DNA from: Dictyostelium discoideum
Lineage: Eukaryota
NCBI GenBank assembly: GCA_000004695.1
Contig: CM000152.2
Coordinates: 1,728,001-1,792,000 of the forward strand
Direction of reading: 5' to 3'
Length of the DNA: 64,000 nt
A program made the translations under genes and the position numbers. The notes under the pieces are model-generated. The model was not told where the DNA came from. It searched no databases and saw only the letters and a list, made by a program, of their open reading frames with translations. This document shows positions 7,166 through 58,700 of the stretch, piece by piece (within the stretch, counting starts at the first letter, position 1; each line of letters opens with the position of its first letter).

Positions 7166-7260
<95 letters not shown>

Positions 7261-7426
7261 GATAAAAAGAAAAGAGAATTGGAATTTTTAATTACAGAAT
7301 CACAACCTTCCAAAATAATTAAGACAACAGAAGAAGAGGAAGAGGAAGCCTTAAAAGAAGTTTCAACAATAAGTAGTTTATTTGGTGCTTATAGTGACGA
7401 AGATGATGATGATGATAATAATAATA

Positions 7427-8870: not shown

Positions 8871-9809
8871 TATGATGAAGATGGTTATGATGAAAATGGT
8901 TATGATAAATATGGTTATTTTTTATGTAAAAAAAACATCTATGATGAAAATGGCTATGATCAATATGGCTATAATGAATATGGTTATGATAAAGATGGTT
9001 ATGATGAAGATGGTTATGATGAAGAGGGTTATGATGAAGATGGTTATGATAAAGCTGGTTATGATAAATGTGGTTATAATGATGATGGTTATCATCAAGA
9101 TGGTTATAATGCATTAGGTTATTATGAAGATGGTTATAATATAAATGGTTATAATGAAGATGGTTATGATAAATATGGTTATAATGAAGATGGTTATGAT
9201 GAAGATGGTTATAATGAAGAGGGTTATGATAAAGATGGTTATCATATATATGGTTATAACAAATATGGTTATAATAAATATGGTTATGATAAATATGGTT
9301 ATGATAAAGATGGTTATGATAAAGACGGTTACGATGAAGATGATTATGATAAAAATGGTTATAATCCATATGGTTATGATAAAGATGGTTTTAATAAAAA
9401 TGGTTATAATAGAGATGGGGTTTATATAAAAAAAAAAAAACTTAACAAAATCACTAAAAAAAGCAAATTAGTTTTGAAATCATTAATTCCATATAAAGGT
9501 ATTCTTGCAAATAATTTAACAGATTTTAAATCAACTGAAAATGATTTCTTTTTAAATGTAGTGTCTCTTTTGTCACGTGAACGCCATATTACATTTATAT
9601 CTAGTGGTAACTTTGACAACAATTTCAACAATTGTTTGAAAATATCGCCGGAATTCTCAAAATGGAATAGTAATAAAGGTGAGGTAGAAATAAGTTCCTT
9701 TCCAACTTATGCTATAGATACAAAGGGTTCTAGAAGACTGACCTTTTATTTTTTTTCAATGAATAGTAAGTCTTTTTTATTAATTATAATTAACAATATT
9801 TTAAAATAA
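8871..9809 (+). CDS. Hexapeptide-repeat protein (about 30 tandem G-Y-D/N-x-x-G units) with a non-repetitive C-terminal tail; 5' end lost in the assembly gap
   Basis: Plus-strand frame is open from the gap through 9809. An 18-nt unit (ggttatgat gaa/aaa gatggt) is repeated in tandem from 8871 to about 9420, giving GYDEDGYDKDGY... Codons follow Dictyostelium usage (gat, ggt, tat, gaa). The minus strand is also open (HNHLYHNH), so strand assignment rests on ORF length and the unique tail. Confidence 0.4.
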   Translation, partial: YDEDGYDENGYDKYGYFLCKKNIYDENGYDQYGYNEYGYDKDGYDEDGYDEEGYDEDGYDKAGYDKCGYNDDGYHQDGYNALGYYEDGYNINGYNEDGYDKYGYNEDGYDEDGYNEEGYDKDGYHIYGYNKYGYNKYGYDKYGYDKDGYDKDGYDEDDYDKNGYNPYGYDKDGFNKNGYNRDGVYIKKKKLNKITKKSKLVLKSLIPYKGILANNLTDFKSTENDFFLNVVSLLSRERHITFISSGNFDNNFNNCLKISPEFSKWNSNKGEVEISSFPTYAIDTKGSRRLTFYFFSMNSKSFLLIIINNILK

Positions 9810-40230: not shown

Positions 40231-41370
40231 ATGGATGGATTTGAAGATCAAGAATTGGTTTCAATGGAGTTATTACAGATGGTATTATTAAAAAATTTTT
40301 TTTTTTTTATTAAAAAATTAAATAAATAAATAAATAAATAAATAAAACTAACAGTTATTATTATTATTTTATTATCTTTTATTATTATTATTATTATTTA
40401 ATATTAAATAGCAAAATGAATCATATTGGTTAATTCAAAGAGAAGTACCAACAGTTTGTAAAAGGGTTAGAACCATTGTAAATGTGAGTTTATAATTCAT
40501 TCATTCATTCATTCATTCATTCATTCATTGATTCATTCATTCATTCATTCATTCATTCATTCATTCATTGATTCATTCATTCATTCATTCATTCATTCAT
40601 TCATTGATTCATTCATTCATTCATTCATTCATTCATTCATTCATTGATTCATTCATTCATTCATTCATTCATTCATTCATTCATTCATTCATTCATTCAT
40701 TCATTCATTCATTCATTCATTCATTCATTCATTCATTCATTCATTCATTCATTCATTCATTCATTGATTTATTCATTCATTAATTCATTGATTTATTCAT
40801 TCATTAATTAATTTAAATATACTAATGTTTTTATATTTACTATAATTTTTTTTTTATTTTTTTATTTTTTTTTAGAAATGTTTAGAGTTATTACACCCAA
40901 TCGATCGAACTGAAGAAGATAAGGAAAATATAGATGAAGAAGATAAAAGTAAAAATAAAAAGAATGAGAATTTAAATAAAAATCAAGAGCCAGAGGAAGA
41001 GGATAATGAGGTGAATGAATTATTTGATATATTAAAATTTAATGAGGAAGATTCTAAAAAAGTTGGAACTGAGAAATTTGAAACTCTAGAGTATGTATGA
41101 ACTTTAATAATATTGGATTGGATGCAATAATTTTATTTTTTTTTTTAAAAAAAAAAAAAATAATAATATATACAAAATAATAATTTTGATAAATTTATAC
41201 AGAGGAAGTAGAGGTGTTTTAAAGTTAAATGGTTGGTTAGTAAATTCAAATGATCTACATATTAAAACAAAGAGTAAAACAAATAATCCAGTCATGTATA
41301 AAGATACTATTTCAAAATCATCACCTTGGAGATTAAATCAAGTATGTAATTATTTCTTTTTTTTGTAATC

Positions 41371-41430
<60 letters not shown>

Positions 41431-41707
41431 TTAATAACAAATTTAAATCAAAACATTTTTAGATTCAAAATGCATATAATCATCTTCAATTTGTAGAATC
41501 CGAATTAACAGGTATTATTAACTTTGCTCAAAGATATGTACCCACTTTTGTAAATTTTTCAACCCCACAACAATTAAATAATAATGCTAATAGTGGCATT
41601 GGTACCCTTAATAATAATAATAATAATAATATTGGTAGTAGTTTAGAATCATCATCGTCATTTGTTTCGAATAACAGTAATAATATAGATGGTAACTATC
41701 CTTTTTG

Positions 41708-41738
<31 letters not shown>

Positions 41739-42354
41739 AGATTTTAATTTTTTTATTTTTTCTTCTTCTTCTTCTCAAAAAAAAAAGGTTGTAATACATT
41801 TACAGGTAATAGTGGTAATGGTATAGTACCACCAGAATTATTATCATTATTTGAAATTATAAAATCAATTGGAGAATGGATATCATTAGCAAAGGATGAA
41901 TTATTATTACCAAGTAAAGATGTTTTTCCAATTACATTATTTCAAAGAAATCTATTAAAAAATTTACCACCAGATTTACATATTGATATTACAGTTTCCA
42001 ATTGTGATATTGTTTTTAGTATACACGAATTACAAATTTCATCATCTGATTCTGGTCAAAATTTGGGTGGAATTGGTGGTAGTGGTGGTAGTATTGGCGG
42101 AGGAGGTGGTGGTGGTTTAAGTGGTAGTGGTTCTCATCATCATCATCATAATAATAATAATAATAATAATCATCATCATTCAAGCCCAAGTAAATTTTTA
42201 AAAAAATCTGCAAATAAATTGGTTGGAGGTGGAAGTCCACATCCACAACATATGCAACAACAAATAAATGGTGCATCAAATGGTCATAATAATAATGGTA
42301 ATAATAATGGTTCTCAACCAAATGGCAATAATCAAGGTAATAATAATGGTATTA

Positions 42355-42420
<66 letters not shown>

Positions 42421-42657
42421 GCAATAATAATGGTATTAATAATAATAATAATCAACAACAACCACCAAATAATCAATCACAATCACAACCAACTTCATCA
42501 ACAAGTACACCACAAACTTCTCAACCAACTTTATCAACATCTTCCACTATTCCAAGAAATAATAGTGGTAATAATTTATCAAACTCAACAGGTAATAATA
42601 ATAGTAATAACAACAACAACAATAACAACAATAGCGGTAATAATAGTAATGATAATA

Positions 42658-42751
<94 letters not shown>

Positions 42752-43080
42752 ATCACCAAATATGTCAACTTTAGTGGAAGAAGATTTTAATACCAACCCA
42801 CCTGATCAATATTCAAAGAAAACTTAGTAAGTTTTATTTTTATTTTATTTTTTTTTGTTTTTAAAAATTTTCTATTAACATTTTTTTATTTATTTTTTCA
42901 TTTTCCTTTTTCAGTCAAATGAATAAGCAAGGTAGTGTCCAATGGGTTACAGTAATAGAGCACAGTGAATCTAGAATTCCAGTTAAAAAATTCTCTGATA
43001 CATTTGCATTGATGACAAGCGCATATGATAAATTGGCAGATTTAAGTGAAAAGTTTATGGTCTTATCAAATACAAGCTAA
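40231..43080 (+). CDS. Rogdi/Rav2-family protein (RAVE-complex-like) with large N/G/H/Q-rich low-complexity insertion, about 636 aa; exons 40231..40281, 40412..40483, 40876..41090, 41203..41341, 41463..41691, 41788..42826, 42915..43080
   Basis: Seven-exon model with all phases consistent (1911 nt). The Rogdi-like blocks are DQELVSMELLQ...SYWLIQREVPTVCKRVRTIVNKCLELL (compare Rogdi [23 protein letters not shown]) and GVLKLNGWLVNSNDLHIKTK...SSPWRLNQIQNAYNHLQFV (compare [20 protein letters not shown]...KQWKLQQIQDARNHV). An alternative in-frame acceptor exists at 41806. The exon 1 donor GTATTA is weak. The stop TAG of the long ORF overlaps the GTAAGT donor before the last exon. Confidence 0.5.
40494..40796. 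repeat. (TCAT)n / (ATTC)n tetranucleotide microsatellite, about 300 bp, inside intron 2 of the Rogdi-like gene
   Basis: cattcattcatt run with a periodic cattgattcatt variant unit. Confidence 0.95.
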
Positions 43081-43917
43081 AAGAGTTTATGTAAAAAAAA
43101 AATAATAAATAAATAAATAAATAATAAAGCTTTAGCAATCAAAAGGGATGGTTTAATTGTCATTCCAAAATAATTATCCTTTATAGGACCATTAAGTTTT
43201 AAAATTTTAATACCTTTTCTAAACAAATTTTATCTGACAAAAAATCCTTTCTTTTTTTTTTTTTTTTTTTTTTTGAATTAGAGTTTAGAAATTAAAGACA
43301 ATAAAAAATAATTAGCGATTTTTATTTTTTTATTTTAAAAATTTTAAAGTTGTTTATGAAATAGAACAAATAAATTTAAATGTATTGGTCAAATATTTGG
43401 ATTTTTAAAATTGATTGGGTCTTAGGAAATTTTATGATAATATTTTTTTTATGATTATTGAAATAAAATAAAAAATGATTACTTAATAAATTAAATGAGA
43501 AACCTCATTACAATTATAATATCTTAAATATGTGTCAAATTATATTTCAAATAATTTTAAACACCTTTGCTTTCATTACAAATTTAGAATATCTTATTTT
43601 GTGCCAAAGTATTCAAATATTAATTTTATATTGATTGTGTCATATGATATGGTATTAGTATAAACATGAAAATAATTTTCTTTTCAATTCTAATTGTTGA
43701 TCACATTTTCAAGAGTTAAAGCTACAAATAAATAAATTAAAAAATAAATATATTAAATAAATAAAAGAATATTAAATTTAAGCTTTTGTTACATTATAAT
43801 CATTACATAAAATTCATTGCATTAACCTGCGTTGAAATTAGACCACTTTCGTTACAAACTCACATAACAATAAAATTAAAAAAACATACACATGGTTATT
43901 ATTATTATTATAATTAT

Positions 43918-44306
43918 CTATTTATTTATTTTAGGGGTTTTTTCAATATATTCTTGATAAGTTTGAGTTGGTATAATTTCTTTGGATAGTTCATCCAAAC
44001 ATTGCACCATATAGTCAAAAACTGATTGATTCCAATCTTGCTGGCCTTTAATATGCAACTGATTTTTTGATACATCTGTTGAGTTGAATCCCAAACATAC
44101 CAACTCTATATTTTCTTTGATATAACCTTTTTTATTGTCAAGTCTATTCAATGACATTTGGAAAACACGTTCATCATTATCAATTTCACGGCTGTACAAC
44201 ATTATAATACCACTAAGATTACATTTACCTCTTTGAATTTTAATATCGTCGTCATCAATAATTTCTTGACTTTTTATTAATGAAAGTGTTGAAGAAAATA
44301 ATGAAG

Positions 44307-44386
<80 letters not shown>

Positions 44387-44731
44387 GATGATGATGAAGA
44401 TGATGAAGAAGAAGAAGATGCTGGTGATGAAGATGGTGAGGGTGTAATTATTACTATTATCAATTACTTCATTTTTATTTATATAATTATTATTTTTAAT
44501 AAAAGAACTACAACTACTATTATAAATATCTTCAAGTGGTCTTTTATTAAAATAAAAAGAAATACCAACATCATTCATACCTTTCCTCAGAATCTCTTGG
44601 TTTTCTTTTTCAATTTTTTCATTATATTCATCTAATGAACAAGATGTTTCTGGTCCTGAAGGGTAAACAAATTTTGGAGAAGAGTTCTTATTTATTTTTG
44701 TATTTTTATTATTTTTTTTATGATGAAGCAT
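43918..44731 (-). CDS. Hypothetical protein with long poly-Ser tract; two long ORFs (44731..44255 and 44463..43918) overlap in different frames across a (GAT)n/(ATC)n tract
   Basis: The N-terminal ORF from ATG 44731 (MLHHKKNNK...NEVIDNSNNYTLT) and the C-terminal ORF (poly-S ...KGYIKENIELVCLGFNS...QEYIEKTPKINK) both have complex coding-like composition. They are offset by one nucleotide, with no GT..AG intron between them, so a frameshift (real or sequencing error in the microsatellite) is implied. Confidence 0.4.
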
Positions 44732-45593
44732 TATGTAAATTTTCTATTAAAAAAACCAAAAATATTAATAATGTAACAAGATATGTTATAAAAACTTCAA
44801 ACTATAATAGATTTCGTCATAATAAAATTTAATAATTAAATTAATAAAATTTAATTAAATTAATAAACAGATGCCCAAATTTAAAACAAAAGTACCGATT
44901 CTACTAATTTTTATTATTTTAAACAGATGTCCAAATTTATAAAATTTAATTTATTTTATAATCTAAACCTATCAATTCGAAATCCTTACTAAAAATGATG
45001 TATTCAATTTTATTCTTACATTTTTAAATTTATTTGAAGTTTAATGGATTTAGATACTAAAAGTGTTAATAAAAAAAAAATCAAAAAAAAAAATTACTAA
45101 CATTTTATATAATTAAACTGAGAACTTTTTTGGGGTTACTTTATTTTTTTTTTTTTTTTTTTTTAAAAAAAAAATACAAGTGTCAGGGCTTGAAAAAAAA
45201 AAAAAAGATCTGGATTTTTTTTGGTGCCACTTTATTTTTTTTTTTTTTTTTTCTAAAAATAAATAAAAGTGTCAGAACCTTTTTGAAAAAAAAAAATCTG
45301 GACCTTTCAATTTTTTCAGGGAAATTAATACTAAAAGTTAAAGTTTATTGCTATATGAAATTATTTAAACACTGTGCCAAAACTAAAATAAAAAAAATAA
45401 AAAATATAAAAAATAAAAAATATAAAAAAATAAAAATTAATAAATAATATTAATAATCATTAGAATTTTTTTTTTAAGTTTTTTTAAATTTAAAAAACAT
45501 TAAAAATGAACAAATAGTTTATGGAATAATACTAACAATATTTTTTTAATTGAGTAGATTTCATCGAAATTTCGATACCTTATGACAAAGACA

Positions 45594-45667
45594 TGTGCCT
45601 GAAGGGTTTCGATCCCATGACCTATTGATTCGAAGTCAATCGCTCTTCCGAACTGAGCTACAAGCAC
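45594..45667 (-). tRNA. tRNA-Arg (anticodon UCG), 74 nt
   Basis: Reverse complement GTGCTTG-TA-GCTC-AGTTCGGAA-GAGC-G-ATTGA-CTTCGAA-TCAAT-AGGTC-ATGGG-ATCGAAA-CCCTT-CAGGCAC-A folds as a cloverleaf. The 7-bp acceptor stem contains one G-U pair. D stem is GCTC/GAGC. The 5-bp anticodon stem is perfect and the anticodon loop has U33 and A37. The T stem has one T-T mismatch and the T loop is ATCGAAA rather than TTCGAAT, so it could be slightly degenerate. Confidence 0.7.
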
Positions 45668-45682
45668 CTTGGCTTCATGGTG

Positions 45683-46542
45683 TGTAATAAAGCTTGTTAG
45701 CTTTATAAATATATAATTAATAATTATATAATTGAATAATACTTTGTTATCTTTATTTAATATTAGTTTATATTTATAATATTCAATATTGTTTATAAAA
45801 TTATTCTTTAGTATTTATATTATTCATAATGAGTTGACAGTATTATTATTATTATTATTATATTATTTAAATGTGTGTCAACTATAATTAGTAATGTAAT
45901 ATGCATATTTAATATCTATTAATTTTATAGAGTAACTTTATTACATATCCCCCCCTTTTAGTTGAAAAAAATTTTTCAATCTTTTAATATAAAACACATC
46001 ATGATTTTTAATATTATCCAATACTAATTTGAATTTTAAATCGCTAACTCTCTCATGTACTTTGAAAAGACCTTCCCAAGATTTATTGAGCTTTACTGGA
46101 CCAACAGTGGATTGTAAATAGACATAATCTCCTACTTGAATATTTGAACGAGAAACTTTTTTATTAATTTGTGATAATTGGTCTTTACCAAGATTATCCT
46201 TAATGAGACAAGGACGTTTGAGGTTATTATTAACAATTTGAGCGAAATTATGAGCAAAATCTAATCTTGATAAATTTGTACATGGATTTCTTATTAATGG
46301 TTGAATTGAGGTTATTTGTGATTTAATTATTGAATTCTCTGTTTGATTTAATGATATTGATTTTAATGGTAAATTTGATGTTATTGGTGAATCTATTGGT
46401 TCTTGGAATAAGAATTCTGGAATATCGTAATCTATTGGTAGTTGTTCTTCAATAGTTGGATACGATTTGATTGATAGTATATGATGAGAATTAAAATTTT
46501 CAATTAAATGATCAGTATCTGTTAATAATTCTGATTTTGATG

Positions 46543-46594
<52 letters not shown>

Positions 46595-47869
46595 TGAATA
46601 ATCAGATACTGTTTTAAATATAGTTTGTATACATGGTTGGGTTTCTTTAGATATTAATTTGGTACCAACATTGAATTCAAGATTCTTAATGATCATTTCT
46701 TTAAAATCAATGACTAAATTTAATCCAATTATTGTATCAATGCCAAATATACAATCAATTGATGTATCATTATCTTTAACAACATTAACTTTAACTCTAG
46801 CGAATGCTTTACCTAATTTAATTGTTGTGTTACTTATTCCAATGATTTCGATTTGATTATTTGATGCTGATTTAACAGAATATTGTTTATTTTCAATCTT
46901 TAATTTTAACTTTTTAGCAATACTTTCCCAAACAATAGTAAGTGATGAACCAGTATCAATCAAACCTCTAACATTTTTATTATTTATTAATAAAGCTGCA
47001 TTCATACTATCTATTCCAATTGAATTAATTGTACTATTATTGACCATTGTAATTGAATTAGTTCTATTATTGTAATTGTTATTATTATTTTTATCTTTTG
47101 ACCAACACTCTTGAATTACATGACCTTTCTTTTTGCAATATTTACAAAATTTTGTGATTGAATTTACTTGATTTTGTGGTGCTTTATAAGGGGATGATTG
47201 TGGTGACATTTGTGGTGATCGATTATAATATTGATTTTTAAAAATTGGTGTTGAAATTTCTTCAGATTCAATTGATTGTTGTTCGTTTTGAGATGTAACA
47301 TATTGAGGGGATGTTGCAGAATAACCCGAACCCGAACCTAGATATCTTTGATTACCAAATTCTTGCAACGTCTTTGCAACTAATTGACCAGTGTACATTG
47401 ATCTACCTTTGATACGAATTGAACCATCTTCACAAGACTTTGCAATATCTATTGCTCTTTTTAATGATTTTGGTGCACATTTTGTAATTTTAATACCCAA
47501 TTCAGTACCAACAGCTGAATAAAACAATTGTATTTTAAACTTTTCTGAAATATCAACTGCTGAACATTTTGATAGAAATTTACCAATTAATATATCTAAT
47601 GTATTGTATTTATATTCTCCCAACTTTGTTAATTCTGTTAAATCATCACTATCACCAATATCAAAAGCATCTTTAAGATCTTCAATTATCTCCATTGCTG
47701 TTAAGTCTGTATCCAATGTTGCGGCATATTCCAATGCATTGTTTCTTAGTTTTCTAATAATATCAGCTTTCGATATTTCCTCGCCATGAATTAATAAGAG
47801 TAAGTGTTTGAATTTACGAAATGATAAACCTTTTCCATCACCCGAAAAAATTACGTTTTCATTATTACT

Positions 47870-47956
<87 letters not shown>

Positions 47957-48333
47957 TATTAAATTAAATTTAATCTAATGTAAAATTTTAATTGATTGAA
48001 TAATTTGATAACTTTATATTTATAGTATATTTTTTTTTTTTTTTTTTTTTTGAAAGACGATGTCGCCAAATGTAATAAAGCTTGTTAGCTTTATAAATAT
48101 ATAATTAATAATTATATAATTGAATAATACTTTGTTATCTTTATTTAATATTAGTTTATATTTATAATATTCAATATTGTTTATAAAATTATTCTTTAGT
48201 ATTTATATTATTCATAATGAGTTGACAGTATTATTATTATTATTATTATATTATTTAAATGTGTGTCAACTATAATTAGTAATGTAATATGCATATTTAA
48301 TATCTATTAATTTTATAGAGTAACTTTATTACA
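45683..48333 (-). mobile_element. DGLT-A-like Ty3/gypsy LTR retrotransposon, internally deleted (2.65 kb), minus orientation, 15 bp upstream of the tRNA-Arg gene; LTRs 45683..45945 and 48071..48333
   Basis: Two 260-263 bp direct repeats begin TGTAAT and end TTATTACA. They are identical except for one tat unit in an internal (tat)n run. A primer-binding site TGGCGACATCG lies immediately internal to the upstream LTR (reverse complement of 48051..48070). A polypurine tract AAAAGGGGGGG lies immediately before the downstream LTR (reverse complement of 45946..45960). The flanking GGTG is duplicated (a 4-bp target-site duplication). The internal ORF has a gag CCHC knuckle and a DTGS protease. Confidence 0.8.
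45941..47872 (-). CDS. Retroelement gag-protease-integrase C-terminus fusion ORF (643 aa), lacking RT/RNase H/integrase core
   Basis: CCHC zinc knuckle CKYCKKKGHVIQEC. Aspartic protease LIDTGSSLTIV. The C-terminal block GDYVYLQSTVGPVKLNKSWEGLFKV...HDVFYIKRLKNF resembles the gypsy integrase C-terminal/chromo-like region. There is no reverse-transcriptase motif anywhere, so this is an in-frame internal deletion. Confidence 0.7.
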
Positions 48334-50156
48334 GGTGTAATGAACGTCGTATTCCAATTCCTATGAAATTAAGTGTGGACACACCACTCACACCTGGAAT
48401 GTGAAGATTTTAAACCATCTACAAATTGCACTAGTAGCCAATTTAATAGCTATTATATTCGAAAAAATTTGGCACAAAAGAAACAAACTCATTCACGATG
48501 AAAAAGAAATAATAATTCACAGACAACAAGTAATACGTGAACTAATTAAAACACAAAGAGCTGCATGGGACAGGACACAAGCGGTTATAAACAAAACATT
48601 AAGAATCAAATCAAAGCAACGGCCAGAAGAACAAAATAAACTAGACTCACTAATCTCGCTAAAGCTATTACAATTTAGCAGACAATGGAACTCACCTCTT
48701 CACGCAATAGAACTTCCTAAACATCTCAAAAAATACAATAATTCACTCAGTACTTTCTATAAATAAATAAAAAAAAAAAAAAAAAAATAAAAAAATAAAA
48801 AAAAAAAAAAAAAAAACTTGGGAACCCAAGTTAATCAGAAAATTTCCAGATTTTTAACTTTTTAAAGAAAAATAAAAAAAATAGAAAGAAAATAAAATGA
48901 AAATCACAAACAACACCACAAATATTAAGCAACACAAATGCCTACAAAAAATAAGCGAAATTGTGGATAAAACTCAATTAAAAAAAAAACAATTCAAATA
49001 CGTCATAAACATCAATCACGAACCAGACGATAAAATAAAAAAAGATATAGAAAAAAGTTTGGACAAAAAAGATGTTTTAATCAAAAGTAATAATATAATT
49101 CAAAATTCGAAACAAAAAAAAAAAAAAAAAAAAAAAAAAAGGTAAACCAACCCCTCTTTTAGAGACCCTGTAAAAAAAAAAAAATAAAATAAAATGAGAT
49201 CTAGCATCTCAAGGAGAAGCAAATAATAATTGCGTTATCCAATTCAAAAAAAAAACAATTCCTATGAAATACTTTTGATAATTTGTATATACCTTATATA
49301 CTTGTGTTACCCTTGAACACAGAGAAATAATTAATAATAAATAATAAATAATAAATAATATTATATCTCTTATATAATATTATATGTAATAAAGTATAAG
49401 TTTTGTTTATGCACAATTTGGAATAAAACAACAATGAATTAATTTTTATTTTATTTACTATTTATACTAAAATTAATTTTACTAAAGAAACCGTTGGTTA
49501 AATTTCTGAGAATAAAGTAAGAATCTTGTATTTGACGTCTTTTCAGTAACAGATCTATTTCTATATTTGTATTTTACCAAGGATAAAAACTTTATATGTT
49601 AATTTATGTCGCTTAATTATTCGCGATTATTACACAAGTAAAGGACCTCGTATTTGGACTTCTATGAAATTATGAGGCTTGGCACATATTCTTCAAATGT
49701 AAATCTCACCTCAAAGACACTCAAACCTGCATTGATTACATTCAAGATAAAAGTGGGGGTTCCCAAATCACGTGGGGAGTGGAAATATTTGGGAACAAAC
49801 TGGATATTTCACTAACAGCCAACGCCATAGCTATAATCTGTGAAAGCATTTGGAGAAGAAGAAACAAAAGAATACACGAAGAAATCACTCTCAAAAAACT
49901 AAGAGAAGAAAAACCCAAACATCTATTAAAGAAAACGCAAGAAGCTGCCTTGGAAAGAACCAAAAACAACATATATAAATTAATAAGACAATCAAAAAAA
50001 GCAACAACGATTGAAGCAGCTAAAAAATTCAAATCCATCATCTCCTCTCAATTAGAAAGATTCAGAAAAAACTAGAACTCTCCTCTACACATAGTAACAC
50101 TTCCACCCAACCTAAACAAATATATAACATCACTCAACACACTCTATACCCTCAAC

Positions 50157-50202
<46 letters not shown>

Positions 50203-50545
50203 TATAAATATATAAAACTAATACCACCCGAAAAAAAAAAAAAAAAAAAGGGACCATTTTAAAATTAAAACCTACTATAATAAAATGAGATTAATCTCAA
50301 GAAGAAGCAACTCACAATTGCTTTATTCCATTCAAAAAAAAACTTCTATGAAATACTAATAATATTTTGTACAAACAGAAATAATTAACAAAAACGCACT
50401 ATTCAGTGAATGCTCAGGGTTATCAAAGGTTTCTTTATAAAATCGTTAACGTCTTTTCGGCTACATATCCATTTCTATATTTGAGTTTATCAAGGATGAA
50501 AACTTTATATGTTAATATATGTCACTTATTCATTCGCGATTATTA
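48334..50545 (+). mobile_element. Nest of non-LTR (TRE-type, tRNA-gene-targeted) retrotransposon fragments: two poly(A)-terminated ORF2 C-terminal fragments plus a recurrent non-coding module
   Basis: ORFs 48401..48766 and 49779..50075 are paralogous (IAIIFEKIWHKRNKLIHDE and IAIICESIWRRRNKRIHEE; the W-x-x-RN-x-x-IH motif is characteristic of LINE ORF2 C-termini). Each is followed by an A-rich tail (48767..48816 and 50160..50215). Each is then followed by a conserved module (AAAATGAGAT...CAATTCAAAAAAAAAAC..TCCTATGAAATAC at 49190 and 50283). Another shared block (CGTCTTTTC.G...CTTTATATGTTAAT.TATGTC.CTTAT...TTCGCGATTATTACA) occurs at 49535..49640 and 50445..50545. All lie upstream of the tRNA-Arg gene. 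Confidence 0.55.
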
Positions 50546-50590
50546 CATTCTCATTTAATTTATTAAATAATTATTTTTTTTATTTTATTA

Positions 50591-50639
50591 GACCTATTGA
50601 TTCGAAGTCAATCGAGCTTCTGAAATGAGCTACAAGCAC
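50591..50639 (-). pseudogene. Partial copy of the tRNA-Arg(UCG) gene (5' two-thirds, mutated)
   Basis: gacctattgattcgaagtcaatcgagcttctgaaatgagctacaagcac aligns to positions 1 to about 47 of the 45594..45667 tRNA with a few substitutions. The T arm and 3' acceptor strand are missing. Confidence 0.6.
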
Positions 50640-51088
50640 CAGGCTTTTCTCATTTAATTTATTAAATAATTATTTTTAATTTTATTTCAATAATCATAAA
50701 AAATATCATAAAATTGTTATATTAAAAAAAAATCAAATATAAAACCAATTAAAATTGTTATATTAATTATAAAAAAAATAATAATAAAAAATAATAAATA
50801 ATAAAAAAATTAAAAAATTTAATTACAATTTTCTGTGTGAAAGAAATAAAAAAATTTGTGTCGTAAAATTAATGTAAAAAAAAATGTGCAGAATTAATTC
50901 AACATTTCTGAATTTTATTTTTTAATAAGATTAACAATGATTTTATTTTTTTTTTTTTTTTTTTTTTTTTGGGAATATTAAACCAAACCAATTACAATCA
51001 CTATAAAATAAAATAAAGAAATGAAAAAAAAAAAAAAATAAAATAAAATCATTATTAATCTTATTAATTATATATATTATAAAAAAAA

Positions 51089-52968
51089 ATGTTTAATCAA
51101 ACTAAAATATTTTTATTTTTATTTTTGTTACTATCTTTATTTGTTTTTATTGGTATGGATAAATATTTTTTTTTTTTTTTTTCATTATATTTATTAAAAT
51201 GGTTTTAATATTAACAATGGGTTAATTTTTTATTTTAGATTGTTACCCATGCGATTATAATGTAGGTTGTGATGATGGAGATGAATGTACTGGTGATTCA
51301 TGTTCAATTGATAATTTATGTATAAATATTATTATTTCATGTGATGATAGTAATTTATGTACCAGTGATTCTTGTTCAAGTATAACTGGTTGTTCTAATG
51401 TACCAATTTCATGTGACGATTGTAATGCTTGTACCGTTGATTCTTGTTTGCCATTGATTGGTTGTTGTCATGCTCCAATGGTATGTGATGATTGTAATGC
51501 TTGTACAGTTGATTCATGTTTAAATTCAACTGGTTGCTGTCATACTCCAATAGTATGTGATGATTGTAATGCTTGTACAATTGATTCTTGTTTAAATTCA
51601 ACTGGTTGTTGTCATACTCCAATGGTATGTGATGATGGTAATGCTTGTACAAATGATGGTTGTTCAAGTGAAACTGGTTGCAATCATTTGCCAATTTCAT
51701 GTGATGATTGTAATGCTTGTACATTGGATTCTTGCTCACCAATTACTGGTTGTTGTCATAGTCAAATTTCATGTGATGATTGTAATGCTTGTACATTAGA
51801 TTCTTGTTCACCAATTATTGGTTGTTGTCATACTCAAATGGTCTGTGATGATGGTAATGCTTGTACAAATGATGGTTGCTCTGAAGAAACTGGTTGTTGC
51901 CATACTCCAATTTCATGTGATGATGGCAATTCTTGTACAAATGATGGTTGCTCTGAAGAGACTGGTTGTTGTCATACTCCAATTTCATGTGATGATGGTA
52001 ATGCTTGTACATTAGATTCTTGCTCCTCAACTACTGGTTGTTGTCATACTGCAATGGTATGTGATGATGGTGATGCCTGTACATTAGATTCTTGTTCACA
52101 AACTTCTGGCTGTTGTAGTTCACCAATTTCATGTGATGATGGTAATGCATGCACTAATGATGGTTGTTCAAGTGAAACTGGTTGTATTCATTTACCAATT
52201 TCATGTGATGATGGCAATGCTTGTACAAATGATGGTTGCTCTGAAGAAACTGGTTGTTGTCACACTCCAATTTCATGTGATGATGGTAATGCTTGTACTA
52301 ATGATGGTTGCTCTGAAGAGACTGGTTGTTGTCACACTCAAATTTCATGTGATGATGGTAATGCTTGTACAAATGATGGTTGTTCAAAGGAAGATGGTTG
52401 TATTCATTTACCAATCTCATGTGACGATTGTGATGCCTGTACAGTTGATTCTTGTTCAAATGAAGATGGTTGTATTCATTTACCAATTTCATGTGACGAT
52501 TGTGATGCTTGTACAATTGATTCTTGTTTAAATTCTACTGGTGGTTGTTGTCATACTCCAATTTCATGTGATGATGGTAATGCTTGTACAAATGATGGTT
52601 GTTCAAGTGAAACTGGTTGTAATCATTTACCAATTTCATGTGATGATGGTAATGCTTGTACATTAGATTCTTGCTCACCAACTACTGGTTGTTGTCATAC
52701 TCCAATTTCATGCGATGATGGTGATGCTTGTACATTAGATTCTTGTTCACCAACTTCTGGCTGTTGTAGTTCCCCAATTTCATGTGATGATGGTAATTTA
52801 TGTACAATTGATTCCTGCTCACCTTCAACTGGTTGTTGTCATACTCCAATTTCTTGTAATGATCTCAATATGTGCACCATTGATTTCTGTCTCCCAAATT
52901 TTGGTTGTGTTCATAGATTAAGACCATCATGCCATAACTATAACGAAATTGGTATTAATATAAATTAA
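51089..52968 (+). CDS. Secreted cysteine-rich protein built from about 20 tandem 24-aa Dicty_CTDC-type repeats (C-x-D-x-N-x-C-T-x-D-x-C-x4-GC-x-H-x-P-I-S), 597 aa; exons 51089..51152 and 51239..52968
   Basis: Exon 1 encodes the signal peptide MFNQTKIFLFLFLLLSLFVFI and ends in phase 1 before GTATGG. An 86-nt intron ends TTTTAG. Exon 2 is in frame with the long ORF. The repeat CDDGNACTNDGCSEETGCCHTPIS recurs with near-identical 72-bp DNA units. Minus-strand ORFs (HNHLYKHY repeats) are artefacts of the periodicity. Confidence 0.75.
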
Positions 52969-53302
52969 ATAAAAATTAATTTTTTTTTTATAATAAATTT
53001 TTTTATTTTATAATTTAAAAATTTATTATTTATTATTATTTATTATTAGGTCATAATGGTCAATAATATTAAATATTATATTATTAATAGTGGAAAAAAA
53101 AAAATCAATTTTATAATCGTTAAGCGATTATCCAAAACATTTAAAATTTAATTTGGTGGATGTAAAAATTTCAGCATTAAAGTAATTTTGTTGCCTCTTT
53201 TTTTTTTTTACTTTTATTTTTTTATTTTCTGCGACTCCCCTTATGGAAAATCTACTTAATTTTAATTAAAATCATTCGTTTTTGATTGAAAGTCGTTAGT
53301 GG

Positions 53303-53333
<31 letters not shown>

Positions 53334-53343
53334 CTCCAACGAT

Positions 53344-53378
<35 letters not shown>

Positions 53379-53443
53379 CCTAATAATTATTCATTGATCA
53401 TTAAACATAATCATTTTATCAAAAAAATAAATAATTAATAGCC

Positions 53444-53813
53444 ATGAATACAAATGCATCTGTTTTTTATGGTTTGTAAGTATCTTTCAAAATAAACCAG
53501 ATTTAAATTTAATATTAATCAGGTTTTTTTTTTTTTTTTATTAATATTATTATTAATTTCAAATTAAATTTTTTAAAAAAGTGTTGGATTAACCATAGCA
53601 TGTATTATTCCATGGTACAATGAACGTAGAAAATTTATGGATGAAAAAAATAAGAAAATTGAAGAATCAGCTGAAAATGTTAAACAAAGACAATTGAAAC
53701 AACAACAACAACAACAACAAAATAATAATAACACTAATGACACTATTGATACATATAAACCATATGATGAAACAAACACAAAAAGAACTATACCCAATAA
53801 CCCGAAGAATTAA
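53444..53813 (+). CDS. Small single-pass membrane protein, 87 aa; exons 53444..53475 and 53582..53813
   Basis: ATG at 53444, phase-2 GTAAGT donor at 53476, 106-nt intron ending AAAAAG. The product MNTNASVFYGFVGLTIACIIPWYNERRKFMDEKNKKIEESAENVKQRQLKQQQQQQQNNNN...KN has a hydrophobic helix near the N-terminus followed by a charged tail. Confidence 0.45.
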
Positions 53814-53858
53814 AAAATAAAAATAAAAATAAAAAATAAAATAATTATCAACAAAACA

Positions 53859-54008
<150 letters not shown>

Positions 54009-54701
54009 TAATAACAAGAAGTAAAAATAATATAATAATAGAAACAATAAGAGTAATAAATACTCTTAATAAAATATATCAGTTTCATTATTGAGTAAAA
54101 TAAAGAATTATGTAATTATTGATAATTAAGGAAAACTTCAATTACCAAATTCACAAAAAGTGAAAATAAAATATTAATTCAGTTTCAAATATATATAAAT
54201 AAAATATGGATGAAAAAATAAAACAAAAAAAAATAAAAAAAATAAAAATAAAATAATTTAAACTCAAATAAAATTAAACAGTTAACCCAAACCACACACT
54301 AATTTTTTATTTTTTTTCCTAATTTCAAATTTTTTTTTTATTTTTTTATTTTTTATTTTATTTTTTTTTTTTTTTTTTAAATTTTTTTTTTTTTTTTTTT
54401 TTTTTTAAAAATTTCACAATTTTTTTTAATATAAAAATTGAAAAATTTATTTTTCTTTTCATTTCTTTTTATTGCGAACAAAAGGTTAGTTCGAATTAAA
54501 ATATACATTTTTGTTTGAATCAGCATTTTGTTTTTGTTTAAATTAAAAATAAATTACATTGTTGTAAACGATCGGAGACACGAACAACAATGCAATTTAA
54601 GGATGATAGATCGATAAATAAAAAAAATAAATAAAAAAAATAAATAAAAATAAAAAAAAAGAAAAACAAATAATTTTAATATGCGTATAAAATTTTATGT
54701 G

Positions 54702-54742
<41 letters not shown>

Positions 54743-55617
54743 ATAAAAATAATAGAAAATAAAATAAAAATATAAATAAAAAAAATAAATAATTAGAATA
54801 GAATAAAATTGATACACCTATTAGTTTTCTTTTTTTTTTTTTATTCTAAAATTTTTTTTTTCCCTCTTCATTTGAATCTTTTTTTTTTTTTTTTGTTATT
54901 ATTTATTATTATTATTATTATTTATTTATTTATTTTTATTTTAATGTTGTGTAAGTGCAATATCACCTCCATAAAACTTTATTAACCTTTAAAATTTTTT
55001 TTTTTTTATTATTATTATTTTTTTATTTTTTTTATTTTACTACTATAATAAATTCAGGTTTATTAAATTTTTTTTGAATCTGATCAGTAGCAAACAATAT
55101 ACCATATTGTCAAATTGTTCAATATTTTGAAATATAAAAGCAAAAATATTCTTCAATTTACAATTCAATTAGGAATCAAAAAAAAACAAACGAAAACGAA
55201 TAATAATAATTAATAGTAGTAATAATAATAACAATAATAACTAAATCATATAATCCAAAAAAAGAGAGTTAACAGTTCTCATTTTTCTTTGTTCGATCAC
55301 TTTATATTTTATAACATTATAGTTCAACTTTTATTTGTATAACAAAAAAAAGAACATCAAAAAAAAAAAAACATAAAAAAAAAAAAAAAAAAAATCAAAA
55401 AATCAAAAAAAAAAAAAAAATCAAAAAAAACTAAAAAAAAATAATTATTTCTTTTTTTTTTTCAAAACTTATAAATAGTATTTATTCATTCATTTGTTAA
55501 TATTTTATTATTTTCACACTCACTTTTAAATTTTTTTTTTTTTTTTTTTTTTGGAAATAACAGTAAAATTAAATAAAATCACAAAAAAAAAAAAATAAAA
55601 AAGAAATAAAAAAAAAC

Positions 55618-55745
55618 AAATCACTCACATATACATACACACAATTAATAACACACACACACACATACACAAACACACACCACACATACACAAACACACA
55701 CAAACACACACACACACACACACACATACACAAAAATACACAACA
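55618..55745 (+). promoter_or_regulatory. C+A-rich (CA)n-like tract in the 5' flank/5'UTR of the RNA polymerase II largest subunit gene
   Basis: catacacacaattaataacacacacacacacatacacaaacacacaccacacatacacaaacacacacaaacacacacacacacacacacatacacaaaaatacac ends about 35 bp before the ATG at 55778. This is a strong compositional outlier in otherwise near-pure A/T intergenic DNA. Confidence 0.4.
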
Positions 55746-55777
55746 ACCACACATAAAATACATATATAATTTTAAAA

Positions 55778-58700
55778 ATGGCAGCTTTTTTTCCACCATC
55801 ATCAGCAGAACTAAGAAAAGTTAAAAGAGTTCAATTTGGTATTCTTAGTCCAGATGAAATTAGAAATATGTCAGTTGCTCGTGTTGAACATCCAGAAACC
55901 TATGAAAATGGTAAACCAAAAGCTGGTGGTTTATTAGATCCAGCAATGGGTACCATTGATAAAACACAAAGATGTCAAACATGTTCAGGTACAATGGCAG
56001 AATGTCCAGGTCATTTTGGTCATATAGAATTAGCAAAACCAGTATTTCATATTGGTTTCATTGATACAGTATTAAAAATTTTAAGATGTGTTTGTTATCA
56101 TTGTTCAAAATTATTAACGGATACAGTAAGTTTATTTATATATATATTTAAAAATATATATATTATATATATTTTATATTAATTTTTTTTTTTTTTTGTT
56201 TTTAATTTTTTAATTTTTTTTTTTAAAAAAAAAAAAAAAGAATGAACACTCATTTAGACAAGCATTAAAAATTAGAAATCAAAAACATAGATTAAATGCA
56301 GTAGTAGATTGTTGTAAAAACAAAAAAGTATGTGCAATTGGAGGAGAAGAAGAGGAAGAACATGATTTATCAAAAACCGATGAAGAATTGGATAAACCAG
56401 TTAAACATGGTGGATGTGGTAATGTTTTACCAAAGATAACAAAAGAAGATTTAAAGATTATAGTAGAGTTTAAAGATGTAACCGATGAAAGTATTGAAAA
56501 GAAATCGGTACTATCGGCAGAACGTGTTTTAAATATTTTAAAGAGAATTAAAGATGAAGATTCGCGTGCAATGGGTATTAACCCAGATTGGGCAAGAGCA
56601 GATTGGATGATTGCAACAGTATTACCAGTACCACCACCACCAGTTAGACCATCGATTATGATGGATACCTCAACGAGGGGTGAGGATGATTTAACACATA
56701 AATTAGCCGATATTGTAAAGGCAAATAGAGAATTACAACGTCAAGAAAAGAATGGTGCACCAGCACATATCATTGCAGAGGCAACTCAATTCTTACAATT
56801 CCACGTTGCAACCTATGTAGACAATGAAATACCCGGTTTACCACAAGCTCAACAACGTTCAGGTAGACCATTGAAATCGATTCGTCAACGTTTAAAAGGT
56901 AAAGAAGGTAGAATCAGAGGTAATCTTATGGGTAAACGTGTTGATTTCTCTGCTCGTACAGTCATTACTGCCGATCCAAATCTTTCGATCGATCAAGTTG
57001 GTGTACCACGTTCAATTGCGCTCAATCTCACCTATCCAGAGACAGTAACACCTTTCAATATCGATAAAATGAGAGAGTTAATTAGAAATGGTCCATCCGA
57101 GCATCCAGGTGCAAAATATATCATTCGTGAGGATGGTACACGTTTCGATTTACGTTTTGTCAAAAAAGTTAGTGATACCCATTTAGAGTGTGGCTATAAA
57201 GTTGAAAGACATATCAACGATGGTGATGTGGTTATTTTCAATCGTCAACCATCACTTCATAAAATGTCTATGATGGGTCATCGTATTAAAGTTATGCCAT
57301 ACAGTACTTTTCGTTTGAATCTTTCTGTAACCTCTCCATACAATGCAGATTTCGATGGTGATGAAATGAATCTTCATGTACCACAAACTTTGGAAACCCG
57401 TGCTGAAGTCATTGAAATTATGATGGTACCACGTCAAATCGTTTCACCACAATCAAATCGTCCTGTAATGGGTATTGTACAAGATACTCTATTGGGTAGT
57501 CGTCTCTTTACAAAACGTGATTGCTTTATGGAAAAAGATTTAGTAATGAACATATTAATGTGGTTACCATCTTGGGATGGTAAAGTACCACCACCAGCAA
57601 TCTTAAAACCAAAACAACTTTGGACAGGTAAACAACTTTTCTCACTCATCATTCCCGATATAAATTTAATTCGTTTCACATCGACTCACAATGATAAAGA
57701 ACCAAATGAATGTTCGGCCGGTGATACTCGTGTCATCATTGAAAGAGGTGAACTATTGGCAGGTATTCTTTGTAAACGTTCATTAGGTGCAGCAAATGGT
57801 TCAATCATTCATGTGGTCATGAATGAACATGGTCATGATACTTGTCGTCTTTTCATTGATCAAACTCAAACCGTTGTCAATCATTGGTTAATTAATCGTG
57901 GTTTCACTATGGGTATTGGTGATACCATTGCAGATTCTGCAACAATGGCAAAGGTTACTCTTACCATTTCCTCTGCAAAGAATCAAGTAAAAGAATTGAT
58001 TATCAAAGCTCAAAATAAACAATTTGAATGTCAACCAGGTAAATCTGTAATTGAAACTTTTGAACAAAAAGTAAATCAAGTATTAAATAAGGCTCGTGAT
58101 ACCGCTGGTAGTAGTGCACAAGATTCCCTCTCTGAGGATAACAATTTAAAGGCGATGGTAACTGCAGGTTCAAAAGGTTCTTTCATCAATATCTCACAGA
58201 TGATGGCTTGTGTAGGTCAACAAAATGTCGAAGGTAAACGTATTCCATTTGGTTTCCAAAGTAGAACATTACCACATTTCACCAAGGATGATTATGGTCC
58301 AGAGAGTCGTGGTTTCGTAGAGAATTCATATCTTCGTGGTTTAACTCCTCAAGAATTCTTTTTCCATGCTATGGGTGGTAGAGAAGGTTTAATTGATACT
58401 GCCGTAAAAACATCTGAAACCGGTTATATTCAACGTCGTCTTGTAAAAGCAATGGAGGATGTCTCAATTAAATATGATGCCACAGTTAGAAATTCATTGG
58501 GTGATGTTATTCAATTTGCCTATGGTGAAGATGGTATAGATGGTTGTTTTGTTGAGAATCAATCCATTGATTCCCTTAGAAAAGATAATACCGAATTGGA
58601 ACGTATGTATCGTCATCAAGTTGATAAACCAGACTATGGTGATGGTTGGATGGATCCATTGGTAATTGAACATGTTAGAAACGATTCATTAACTCGTGAT

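Follow-up and report, generated by a model that had tools for sequence, protein, structure and literature searches.

The stretch 48334–50545 of the analysed window (64,000 nucleotides of Dictyostelium discoideum contig CM000152.2, assembly GCA_000004695.1, with a G+C content of ~22%; all positions are those of the window unless a locus is named) is very probably part of a stack in which no fewer than five retrotransposons integrated independently, layer upon layer, on the upstream side of a single tRNA-Arg(UCG) gene. The layers comprise two 5'-truncated elements without long terminal repeats (non-LTR elements), a TRE5-A.1 copy (element 1) and a TRE5-C-like copy (element 2), each embedded in an LTR-like repeat (b and c, respectively), and an internally deleted LTR retrotransposon, DGLT-A, directly to the left of them. 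The integration target of the entire stack is the intact tRNA-Arg(UCG) gene at 45594–45667 on the minus strand, which is called by ARAGORN and scores 62.9 bits against the Rfam tRNA model; it is the sole tRNA that Rfam recognizes within 43000–51500. Since a second D. discoideum assembly (locus L007; GCA_054883475.1, record CM142509.1) has the locus in the same arrangement, collinear with the window over 40861–58098, the stack is no artefact of one assembly. Across 45500–50800, i.e., 5.3 kb including the stack, the comparison yields zero mismatches and five gaps, all of which are homopolymer lengths.

An initial annotation of the stretch had proposed that 3' fragments of TRE-type non-LTR elements were serially inserted in one landing zone upstream of one tRNA gene, and this core of the proposal is supported by the identities, duplications, and distances described below. 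A blastn comparison of the stretch with itself recovered the two paralogous open reading frame (ORF) tails (48425–48811 versus 49806–50198), which are 65% identical at the nucleotide level (E 6e-13) and 45% at the amino acid level (E 2e-30), a shared module (49161–49287 versus 50249–50371; 76% identical, E 8e-18), and a second shared block downstream of it (49532–49634 versus 50446–50547; 86% identical, E 4e-28). The pieces match neither one contiguous element nor a DNA transposon. The element families, which had been left unsettled, are two different ones, and the LTR layers interleaved with the TRE5 elements (DGLT-A directly to the left, repeats b and c) were absent from that description; the second shared block corresponds to the outer ~100 bp of repeats b and c in the first and second copy, respectively.

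Element 1 (48370–49255, plus strand, 886 bp) is, by its sequence, a 5'-truncated TRE5-A.1, TRE5-A being the element formerly called DRE. It consists of the C-terminal tail of ORF2, which ends with TAA at 48764–48766 and is followed by an internal A-rich linker, a 295-bp B-module (48818–49112), a C-module ending at 49245, and a terminal oligo(A) of ten residues (49246–49255); it is bracketed by the target-site duplication CAATTCCTATGAAAT at 48355–48369 and 49256–49270, the two copies of which are identical at 15/15 positions. The published organization of TRE5-A.1 is AB-ORF1/ORF2-BC, in which the 290-bp B-module holds the start of ORF1 and the C-module of 134–137 bp forms the 3' end (PMC3159450). 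The ORF2 tail (131 amino acids) is 99% identical to DDB_G0276495 of AX4, a "reverse transcriptase zinc-binding" fragment, and over its final 64 nt it agrees without a mismatch (100%) with a TRE5-A.2 copy in the D. discoideum comparison locus L005. Over 290 bp, the segment 48818–49112 shares 97.9% identity with the B-module in a complete TRE5-A 5' end of L005; this reference B-module sits after three tandem A-modules and opens ORF1 (MKITNN...), and the same ATG and peptide are found in the window at 48897, as a duplicated ORF1 start. Pfam searches with both ORF2 tails and the B-module peptide gave no meaningful match, the tails lying beyond the known domains.

The 3' end of element 1 is equally characteristic of TRE5-A. 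A published study of the C-module hairpin mutated four bases, T15, C26, A35, and C38, numbered backward from the 3' terminus; if 49245 is taken as the last base of the module, element 1 agrees with all four, and at most three of the four match in any other register. The terminal 54 nt are predicted to fold into two hairpins (z = -3.1), and TRE5-A depends on the C-module hairpin for its retrotransposition (PMC3159450). At the BC junction nothing is deleted, as in the A.1 type, whereas the TRE5-A.2 copies in L005 are without ~72 bp at this place, as published. Compared with a full TRE5-A, element 1 represents the last 886 bp only; owing to its 5' truncation, which is typical of TRE5-A copies (PMC3159450), it has no A-modules, no ORF1 body, and neither the APE nor the reverse transcriptase (RT) domain.

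Since element 1 lies on the plus strand and the tRNA gene on the minus strand, the 5' end of the element faces the tRNA in a head-to-head arrangement. At present, it is situated 2.7 kb from the tRNA because DGLT-A was inserted later; once DGLT-A is removed, the insertion distance amounts to 13 + 34–36 = 47–49 bp upstream of the gene. In the literature, TRE5-A integrates ~48 bp (range 37–90) upstream of tRNA genes and targets the TFIIIC/TFIIIB complex.

Element 2 (49671–50342, plus strand, 672 bp) fits the published descriptions of TRE5-C and may be termed TRE5-C-like. It is likewise 5'-truncated and comprises an ORF2 tail that ends with TAA at 50160–50162, a C-module ending at 50333, and a terminal oligo(A) of nine residues (50334–50342), with internal A-runs at 50161–50198 and 50231–50249. 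Its target-site duplication, (A)CTTCTATGAAAT, at 49658–49670 and 50342–50354, is perfect over 12–13 bp (13/13 identical). TRE5-C is reported to possess a C-module 78% identical to that of TRE5-A, a terminal hairpin region of 51 nt versus 54 nt, and no 3' B-module (PMC3159450). In agreement with this, the C-modules of elements 1 and 2 share 76% identity, the homologous terminal hairpin region of element 2 measures 51 nt as against 54 nt in element 1 and is also predicted to form two hairpins, and nothing resembling a B-module separates the ORF2 stop of element 2 (50162) from its C-module, either in sequence comparison or on direct reading. Like the known TRE5-C copies, element 2 is a 3' fragment placed upstream of a tRNA gene; according to the literature, Dd_TRE5-C is represented by an 879-bp 3' consensus only, with 18 copies and no full-length copy, and integrates 38–95 bp upstream of its targets. 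The reconstructed insertion distance of element 2 is ~42–51 bp. The closest relatives of its ORF2 tail are unnamed D. discoideum ORF2-tail fragments with 62–73% identity, which indicates an old family. Two features set this copy apart, namely an in-frame TAG at 50073–50075, where the relatives have Trp, and an extra 32-bp insertion within the A-run that follows the ORF.

The target-site duplications indicate how the two fragments arose. In the initial annotation, the fragments were poly(A)-terminated, each newcomer had cut its predecessor, and a separate non-coding module stood between them. As this account would have it, the 5' portions of both elements are indeed missing, and each ORF is succeeded by a long A-tract. 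However, each truncated 5' end is abutted by its own perfect duplication (15/15 and 13/13), for which chance is an unlikely source in the case of 15/15, and both 3' ends are complete, each with its C-module and oligo(A); the 5' truncation thus took place at integration. The A-tracts after the ORFs are internal, as they are in other TRE5-A and TRE5-C copies, rather than terminal, and in element 1 the 295-bp B-module intervenes between this tract and the module, which had been placed directly after it. The ~90-bp module itself is not an independent unit: it is composed of the last ~55 nt of the published C-module, which defines the 3' terminus of TRE5-A and TRE5-C alike, together with the terminal oligo(A) and the duplicated target. 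Hence, the module end that had been quoted as element sequence (..TCCTATGAAATAC) is the target-site duplication. Truncation by newcomers is accordingly very improbable.

The same duplications bear on whether there were two integrations at all. One ancestral unit of flank, TRE5, and flank could have been duplicated in tandem after a single integration, the copies diverging afterwards, which would account for the identical order of parts in both units (34-bp left piece, ORF2 tail, C-module, target motif, and terminal block). Against it, the divergence is uneven, the ORFs being 45% (amino acids) or 65% (nucleotides) identical versus 86% for the terminal block; the B-module is present in the first unit only; and the 5' truncation points differ, lying ~100 bp apart. 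The duplication pairs are perfect within each unit and the homologous targets differ between units at 4/15 positions. In addition, other genomic copies match element 1 at 99% identity, while the best match of element 2 reaches 73%. We regard a single integration as slightly less credible still than truncation by newcomers, and the two TRE5 elements as independent insertions: their duplications are perfect within each element and different between elements, their truncation points differ, and their ORF2 tails have diverged (45% amino acid identity) far more than the surrounding b/c block (86% nucleotide identity).

The identity of the tRNA that attracted these insertions also deserves comment, as a second tRNA-like sequence lies on the other side of the stack. 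The earlier proposal of a shared tRNA gene holds for the intact tRNA-Arg(UCG) at 45594–45667; it does not hold for the tRNA-like stretch at 50591–50640, which is a 5' half called by neither Rfam nor ARAGORN. The stack does stand on the 3' side of this minus-strand stretch, as would be expected of TRE3-type elements that target the downstream side of a tRNA gene. Nevertheless, the stretch is without B-box and T-arm and is undetected by tRNA models, the elements carry the B- and C-modules of TRE5-A, and the duplications and distances fit a position ~48 bp upstream of the intact tRNA-Arg. An origin of the stack from TRE3-type elements is therefore close to inconceivable.

The probably youngest layer of the stack, at 45683–48333 on the minus strand, is a 2.65-kb deletion derivative of DGLT-A, and the first base outside it, 48334, is the exact start of the stretch that was initially annotated. 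Self-comparison delimits its 5' LTR (48071–48333) and 3' LTR (45683–45945), which are 263 bp each, 100% identical, and of the form TG...CA (TGTAATAA...TTATTACA); a HindIII site (AAGCTT) is present in the LTR. The primer-binding site TGGCGACATCGTCTTTC (48052–48068), 2 bp inside the left LTR, matches exactly, in sequence and position, the one published for D. discoideum DGLT-A (PMC5006619), and the polypurine tract AAAAGGGGGGG lies just inside the right LTR. The element is flanked by the 4-bp duplication GGTG (45679–45682 and 48334–48337). Its 643-amino-acid ORF (45941–47872) contains a gag CCHC knuckle (CKYCKKKGHVIQEC), a protease (Pfam Asp_protease_2, 1e-10), and an integrase tail (a weak SH3_Tf2-1 match), and is 98% identical to DDB_G0279931 of AX4.

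In the literature, DGLT-A is a Ty3/gypsy LTR retrotransposon, the solo LTRs of which were once called "H3R"; its consensus of 5054 bp has LTRs of 265 bp and a single gag-pol ORF with CX2CX4HX4C, protease, RT, RNase H, and integrase, and no full-length genomic copy exists. The window copy agrees with it in LTR length, the exact primer-binding site, polypurine tract, gag knuckle, protease, and position, and departs from the full element in its length of 2.65 kb and in the deletion of RT, RNase H, and the integrase core. It ends 15 bp upstream of the 5' end of tRNA-Arg, five other DGLT-A copies in D. discoideum assemblies stand 12–15 bp from tRNA 5' ends in either orientation, and the published range is 13–33 bp (mean 15) upstream. 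As a separate observation, the same 2.6-kb derivative, with gag, protease, and integrase tail and no RT, occurs at the window locus (45683–48333), L001 5569–8162, and L005 4562–7180, i.e., at tRNA-Arg, tRNA-Ile, and tRNA-Leu, with LTRs that are 100% identical within each locus. This hints at recent mobilisation in trans of an element family that the literature considers probably inactive.

Repeats b and c, both on the plus strand, account for the remaining layers. The left part of b (48336–48369, 34 bp, TGTAATGAACG...) holds the left copy of the TRE5-A duplication, and the first 15 bp of its right part (49256–49634, 379 bp) are the right copy. Correspondingly, the left part of c (49637–49670, 34 bp, AGTAAAGGACC...), which is homologous to the left end of b, holds the left copy of the TRE5-C duplication, and the first 12 bp of its right part (50343–50547, ~205 bp) are the right copy; both right parts end with ...TTCGCGATTATTACA. 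Removal of each TRE5 and one copy of its duplication restores b as 398 bp (48336–48354 + 49256–49634, TGTAATGAACG...CGCGATTATTACA) and c as ~226 bp (49637–49657 + 50342–50547, AGTAAAGGACC...CGCGATTATTACA), which can be aligned end to end except for one large AT-rich indel. Repeat b ends TG...CA and repeat c ends AG...CA. With the later DGLT-A taken out, b starts 13 bp from the tRNA 5' end, and each TRE5 was inserted 34 bp into its repeat. The motif YCTATGAAAT occurs four times in the window, all at the b and c targets and none elsewhere (expected 0.96); it is present four times because b and c are homologous and were struck at the same distance from the tRNA, the recurrence of one target sequence thus being a consequence of the interleaved LTR layers.

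With moderate confidence, b and c are probably solo LTRs of an unclassified DGLT-A-like family. They resemble DGLT-A LTRs in position and in the terminal TGTAAT/ATTACA, and differ from them in internal sequence, for which reason they are filed here as LTR-like and not as DGLT-A LTRs. A 34-bp sequence that is 28/34 identical to the start of b (counted by eye) is located 9 bp from a tRNA-Ser gene in L005/L008 and was also struck by TRE5-A at the same internal position. The LTR of Skipper-2 was considered for b and c and rejected, given that Skipper-2 lies downstream of tRNA genes and b 13 bp upstream.

Several points weigh against the layered reading, or against parts of it. In the DGLT-A LTRs sampled, the sequence in common with b and c is restricted to the termini TGTAAT / TTATTACA, and the internal sequence is unmatched. 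Searches with blastn and an nhmmer profile found no further full copy of b or c in the window and loci L001–L007, and no convincing duplication of 4–5 bp flanks either repeat. The distance of 42–51 bp for the TRE5-C-like element depends on the reconstructed former position of repeat c, and its assignment follows published TRE5-C descriptions instead of a direct alignment to a named TRE5-C reference. Finally, a ~100-bp duplication of the tRNA half at the outer boundary of the stack is unexplained by the layered model.

The TRE5 calls could hold while b and c are instead copies of ordinary flank from upstream of tRNA genes, displaced through segmental duplication or through ectopic recombination between tRNA loci, or are pieces of an as yet unknown 5' region of TRE5-C. 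Such an origin draws on the restriction of the DGLT-A likeness to the termini, the scarcity of copies in the sampled loci, and the absence of a flanking duplication, as well as on other local duplications of flank and tRNA pieces at the window locus and likewise in L002. It is harder to reconcile with the structure of b, which has TG...CA ends, inverted termini TGTAAT/ATTACA like those of DGLT-A LTRs, and a start 13 bp from the tRNA, and with the relative of the b start (28/34) beside an unrelated tRNA-Ser, hit by TRE5-A at the same internal place. Moreover, c must have adjoined the tRNA when TRE5-C landed in it, so that b would have arrived afterwards, between c and the tRNA and without carrying TRE5-C, just as a mobile element directed to about -13 would do. 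Displaced flank or TRE5-C sequence is hence an unlikely, though not a negligible, source of b and c.

Taking b and c as probable solo LTRs, the stack can be read as the work of two kinds of elements, each gauging its own fixed distance from the RNA polymerase III (Pol III) transcription complex on the tRNA gene. Counted from the 5' end of the mature tRNA, DGLT-A-type LTR elements would integrate ~13–15 bp upstream, and TRE5 elements ~48 bp upstream with their 5' end toward the tRNA. The latter would proceed by target-primed reverse transcription from the C-module/oligo(A) 3' end, often halting early so as to leave 5'-truncated copies, and would duplicate 12–15 bp of the target. By analogy with the literature, in which TRE5-A targets the TFIIIC/TFIIIB complex as mentioned above and DGLT-A contacts the TFIIIC subunit Tfc4, the gauging may be mediated by these proteins.

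The order of events would then run from the outside inward. The oldest and outermost layer would be LTR-like repeat c, into which the TRE5-C-like element was inserted at 34 bp. As this landing implies that c once adjoined the tRNA, repeat b would have arrived later, between c and the tRNA, 13 bp from the gene and without TRE5-C. Subsequently, TRE5-A.1 would have been inserted 34 bp into b, then 47–49 bp from the tRNA, and at last the 2.65-kb DGLT-A derivative would have entered b 2 bp from its edge, at a distance of 15 bp from the tRNA. The reconstructed distances (LTR 13–15 bp, TRE5-A 47–49 bp, TRE5-C ~42–51 bp) agree with the published preferences, and repeated integrations at one tRNA gene are known to occur.

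The outer boundary of the stack (50548–~50720, minus strand) consists of the original upstream flank of the tRNA (50548–50590, 43 bp), a 49–50-nt 5' half-copy of tRNA-Arg (50591–50640) that is 92% identical to 45619–45668, and the upstream flank once more, in a longer copy (50641–~50720). Together, the three parts make up a tandem duplication of ~100 bp that covers tRNA-Arg from about -48 to +49, arranged in the sense of the tRNA as flank, AAGCCTG, tRNA[1–49], flank (43 bp), stack, and intact tRNA. Relative to the reconstructed gene, the half-copy starts ~48 bp upstream, the same distance at which TRE5 elements integrate. Elsewhere in the window, at 43428–43502, there is a third, inverted copy of the tRNA-Arg flank, 89% identical over 75 bp to 50646–50715, which ends at the same boundary (...AAATGAGAA) with no tRNA after it. 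The adjoining segment 43503–43860 had given the impression of an LTR-like repeat upon reading; it was discarded as such when it shrank to a 41-bp match with L005, namely 43513–43552, which weakly matches L005 4234–4194 (88%).

Duplication of the same kind is seen in L002, where tandem 5' fragments of tRNA-Leu(CAA) (~22 nt) with ~35 bp of flank occupy 7180–7340 and 9020–9290; the two arrays are inverted and lie on either side of a TRE5-containing segment between two tRNA-Leu genes. It may tentatively be speculated, though we consider it rather doubtful, that b, c, and the 34-bp relative beside tRNA-Ser are solo LTRs of an extinct, unclassified LTR family other than DGLT-A, with sites upstream of tRNA genes as its target, and that retroelements integrating abortively or aberrantly at Pol III genes left behind the ~100-bp tRNA-Arg duplication as well as the tRNA-Leu fragment arrays in L002.

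As a whole, the stack represents known biology. The tRNA targeting of TRE5 and DGLT-A and repeated hits on one tRNA gene are well described in D. discoideum, the latter being stated outright in the literature; the sole loose ends are the unclassified b/c repeat and the ~100-bp duplication of the tRNA half. The arrangement is comparable to the pile-ups of yeast Ty3/sigma and Ty1/delta, which share repeated fixed-distance hits upstream of Pol III genes, solo LTRs, and nesting, and the convergent tRNA-gene targeting strategies of yeast and Dictyostelium elements have been discussed (PMC6101501, PMC5006619). Unlike the yeast pile-ups, which concern another organism and other lineages, a non-LTR family (TRE5) here alternates with an LTR family. 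While of little importance beyond annotation, the locus is still a clean textbook example, in which two unrelated retroelement classes gauge two distances from one Pol III complex and their alternation can be read as a stratigraphy. A practical point for annotation is the gene model ACTFIT_010416 (148 amino acids) of a D. discoideum assembly, the sequence of which corresponds exactly to two spliced pieces of the window within 48897–50075 (L007 8001–9176). The model is an artefact, in which the ORF1 start from the B-module of TRE5-A is joined to the ORF2 tail of TRE5-C.

Parallel stacks are found at other loci. L005 combines tRNA-Leu, DGLT-A, a chimera with the C-module of TRE5-A, and TRE5-C, and L002 combines tRNA-Leu, DGLT-A, and TRE5 pieces. 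In L008 (1–7750, minus strand), three TRE5-A copies stand head-to-tail upstream of tRNA-Ser(AGA), with ATTGTATGAAATTTAA repeated at each junction; two are TRE5-A.2 with at least three tandem A-modules and one is TRE5-A.1, and the third copy extends past the end of the locus. For the TRE5-C-like copy in L006, no tRNA was found within 5 kb. The chimera in L005 (4270–4542, minus strand) begins with a sequence resembling 5S rRNA (46.8 bits against Rfam 5S_rRNA, above the gathering threshold), which is followed by 43 A residues, the TRE5-A C-module, and oligo(A). With the duplication AACCTCTTTTG on both sides, it occupies the place of a TRE5 upstream of tRNA-Leu(UAA), and looks like a chimeric retro-copy in a genome that has been reported to be without processed pseudogenes.

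Two further features of the window adjoin the stack. At 45126–45296, ~300–470 bp downstream of tRNA-Arg, there are two ~80-bp direct repeats that are 83% identical and rich in T/A runs, on the side of the tRNA where TRE3 elements are expected. In the gene to the right of the stack, the segment 51268–52916 is a long array of diverged repeats with a period of 72 bp, which encode Cys-rich units resembling CxDDxNxCTxDSC.

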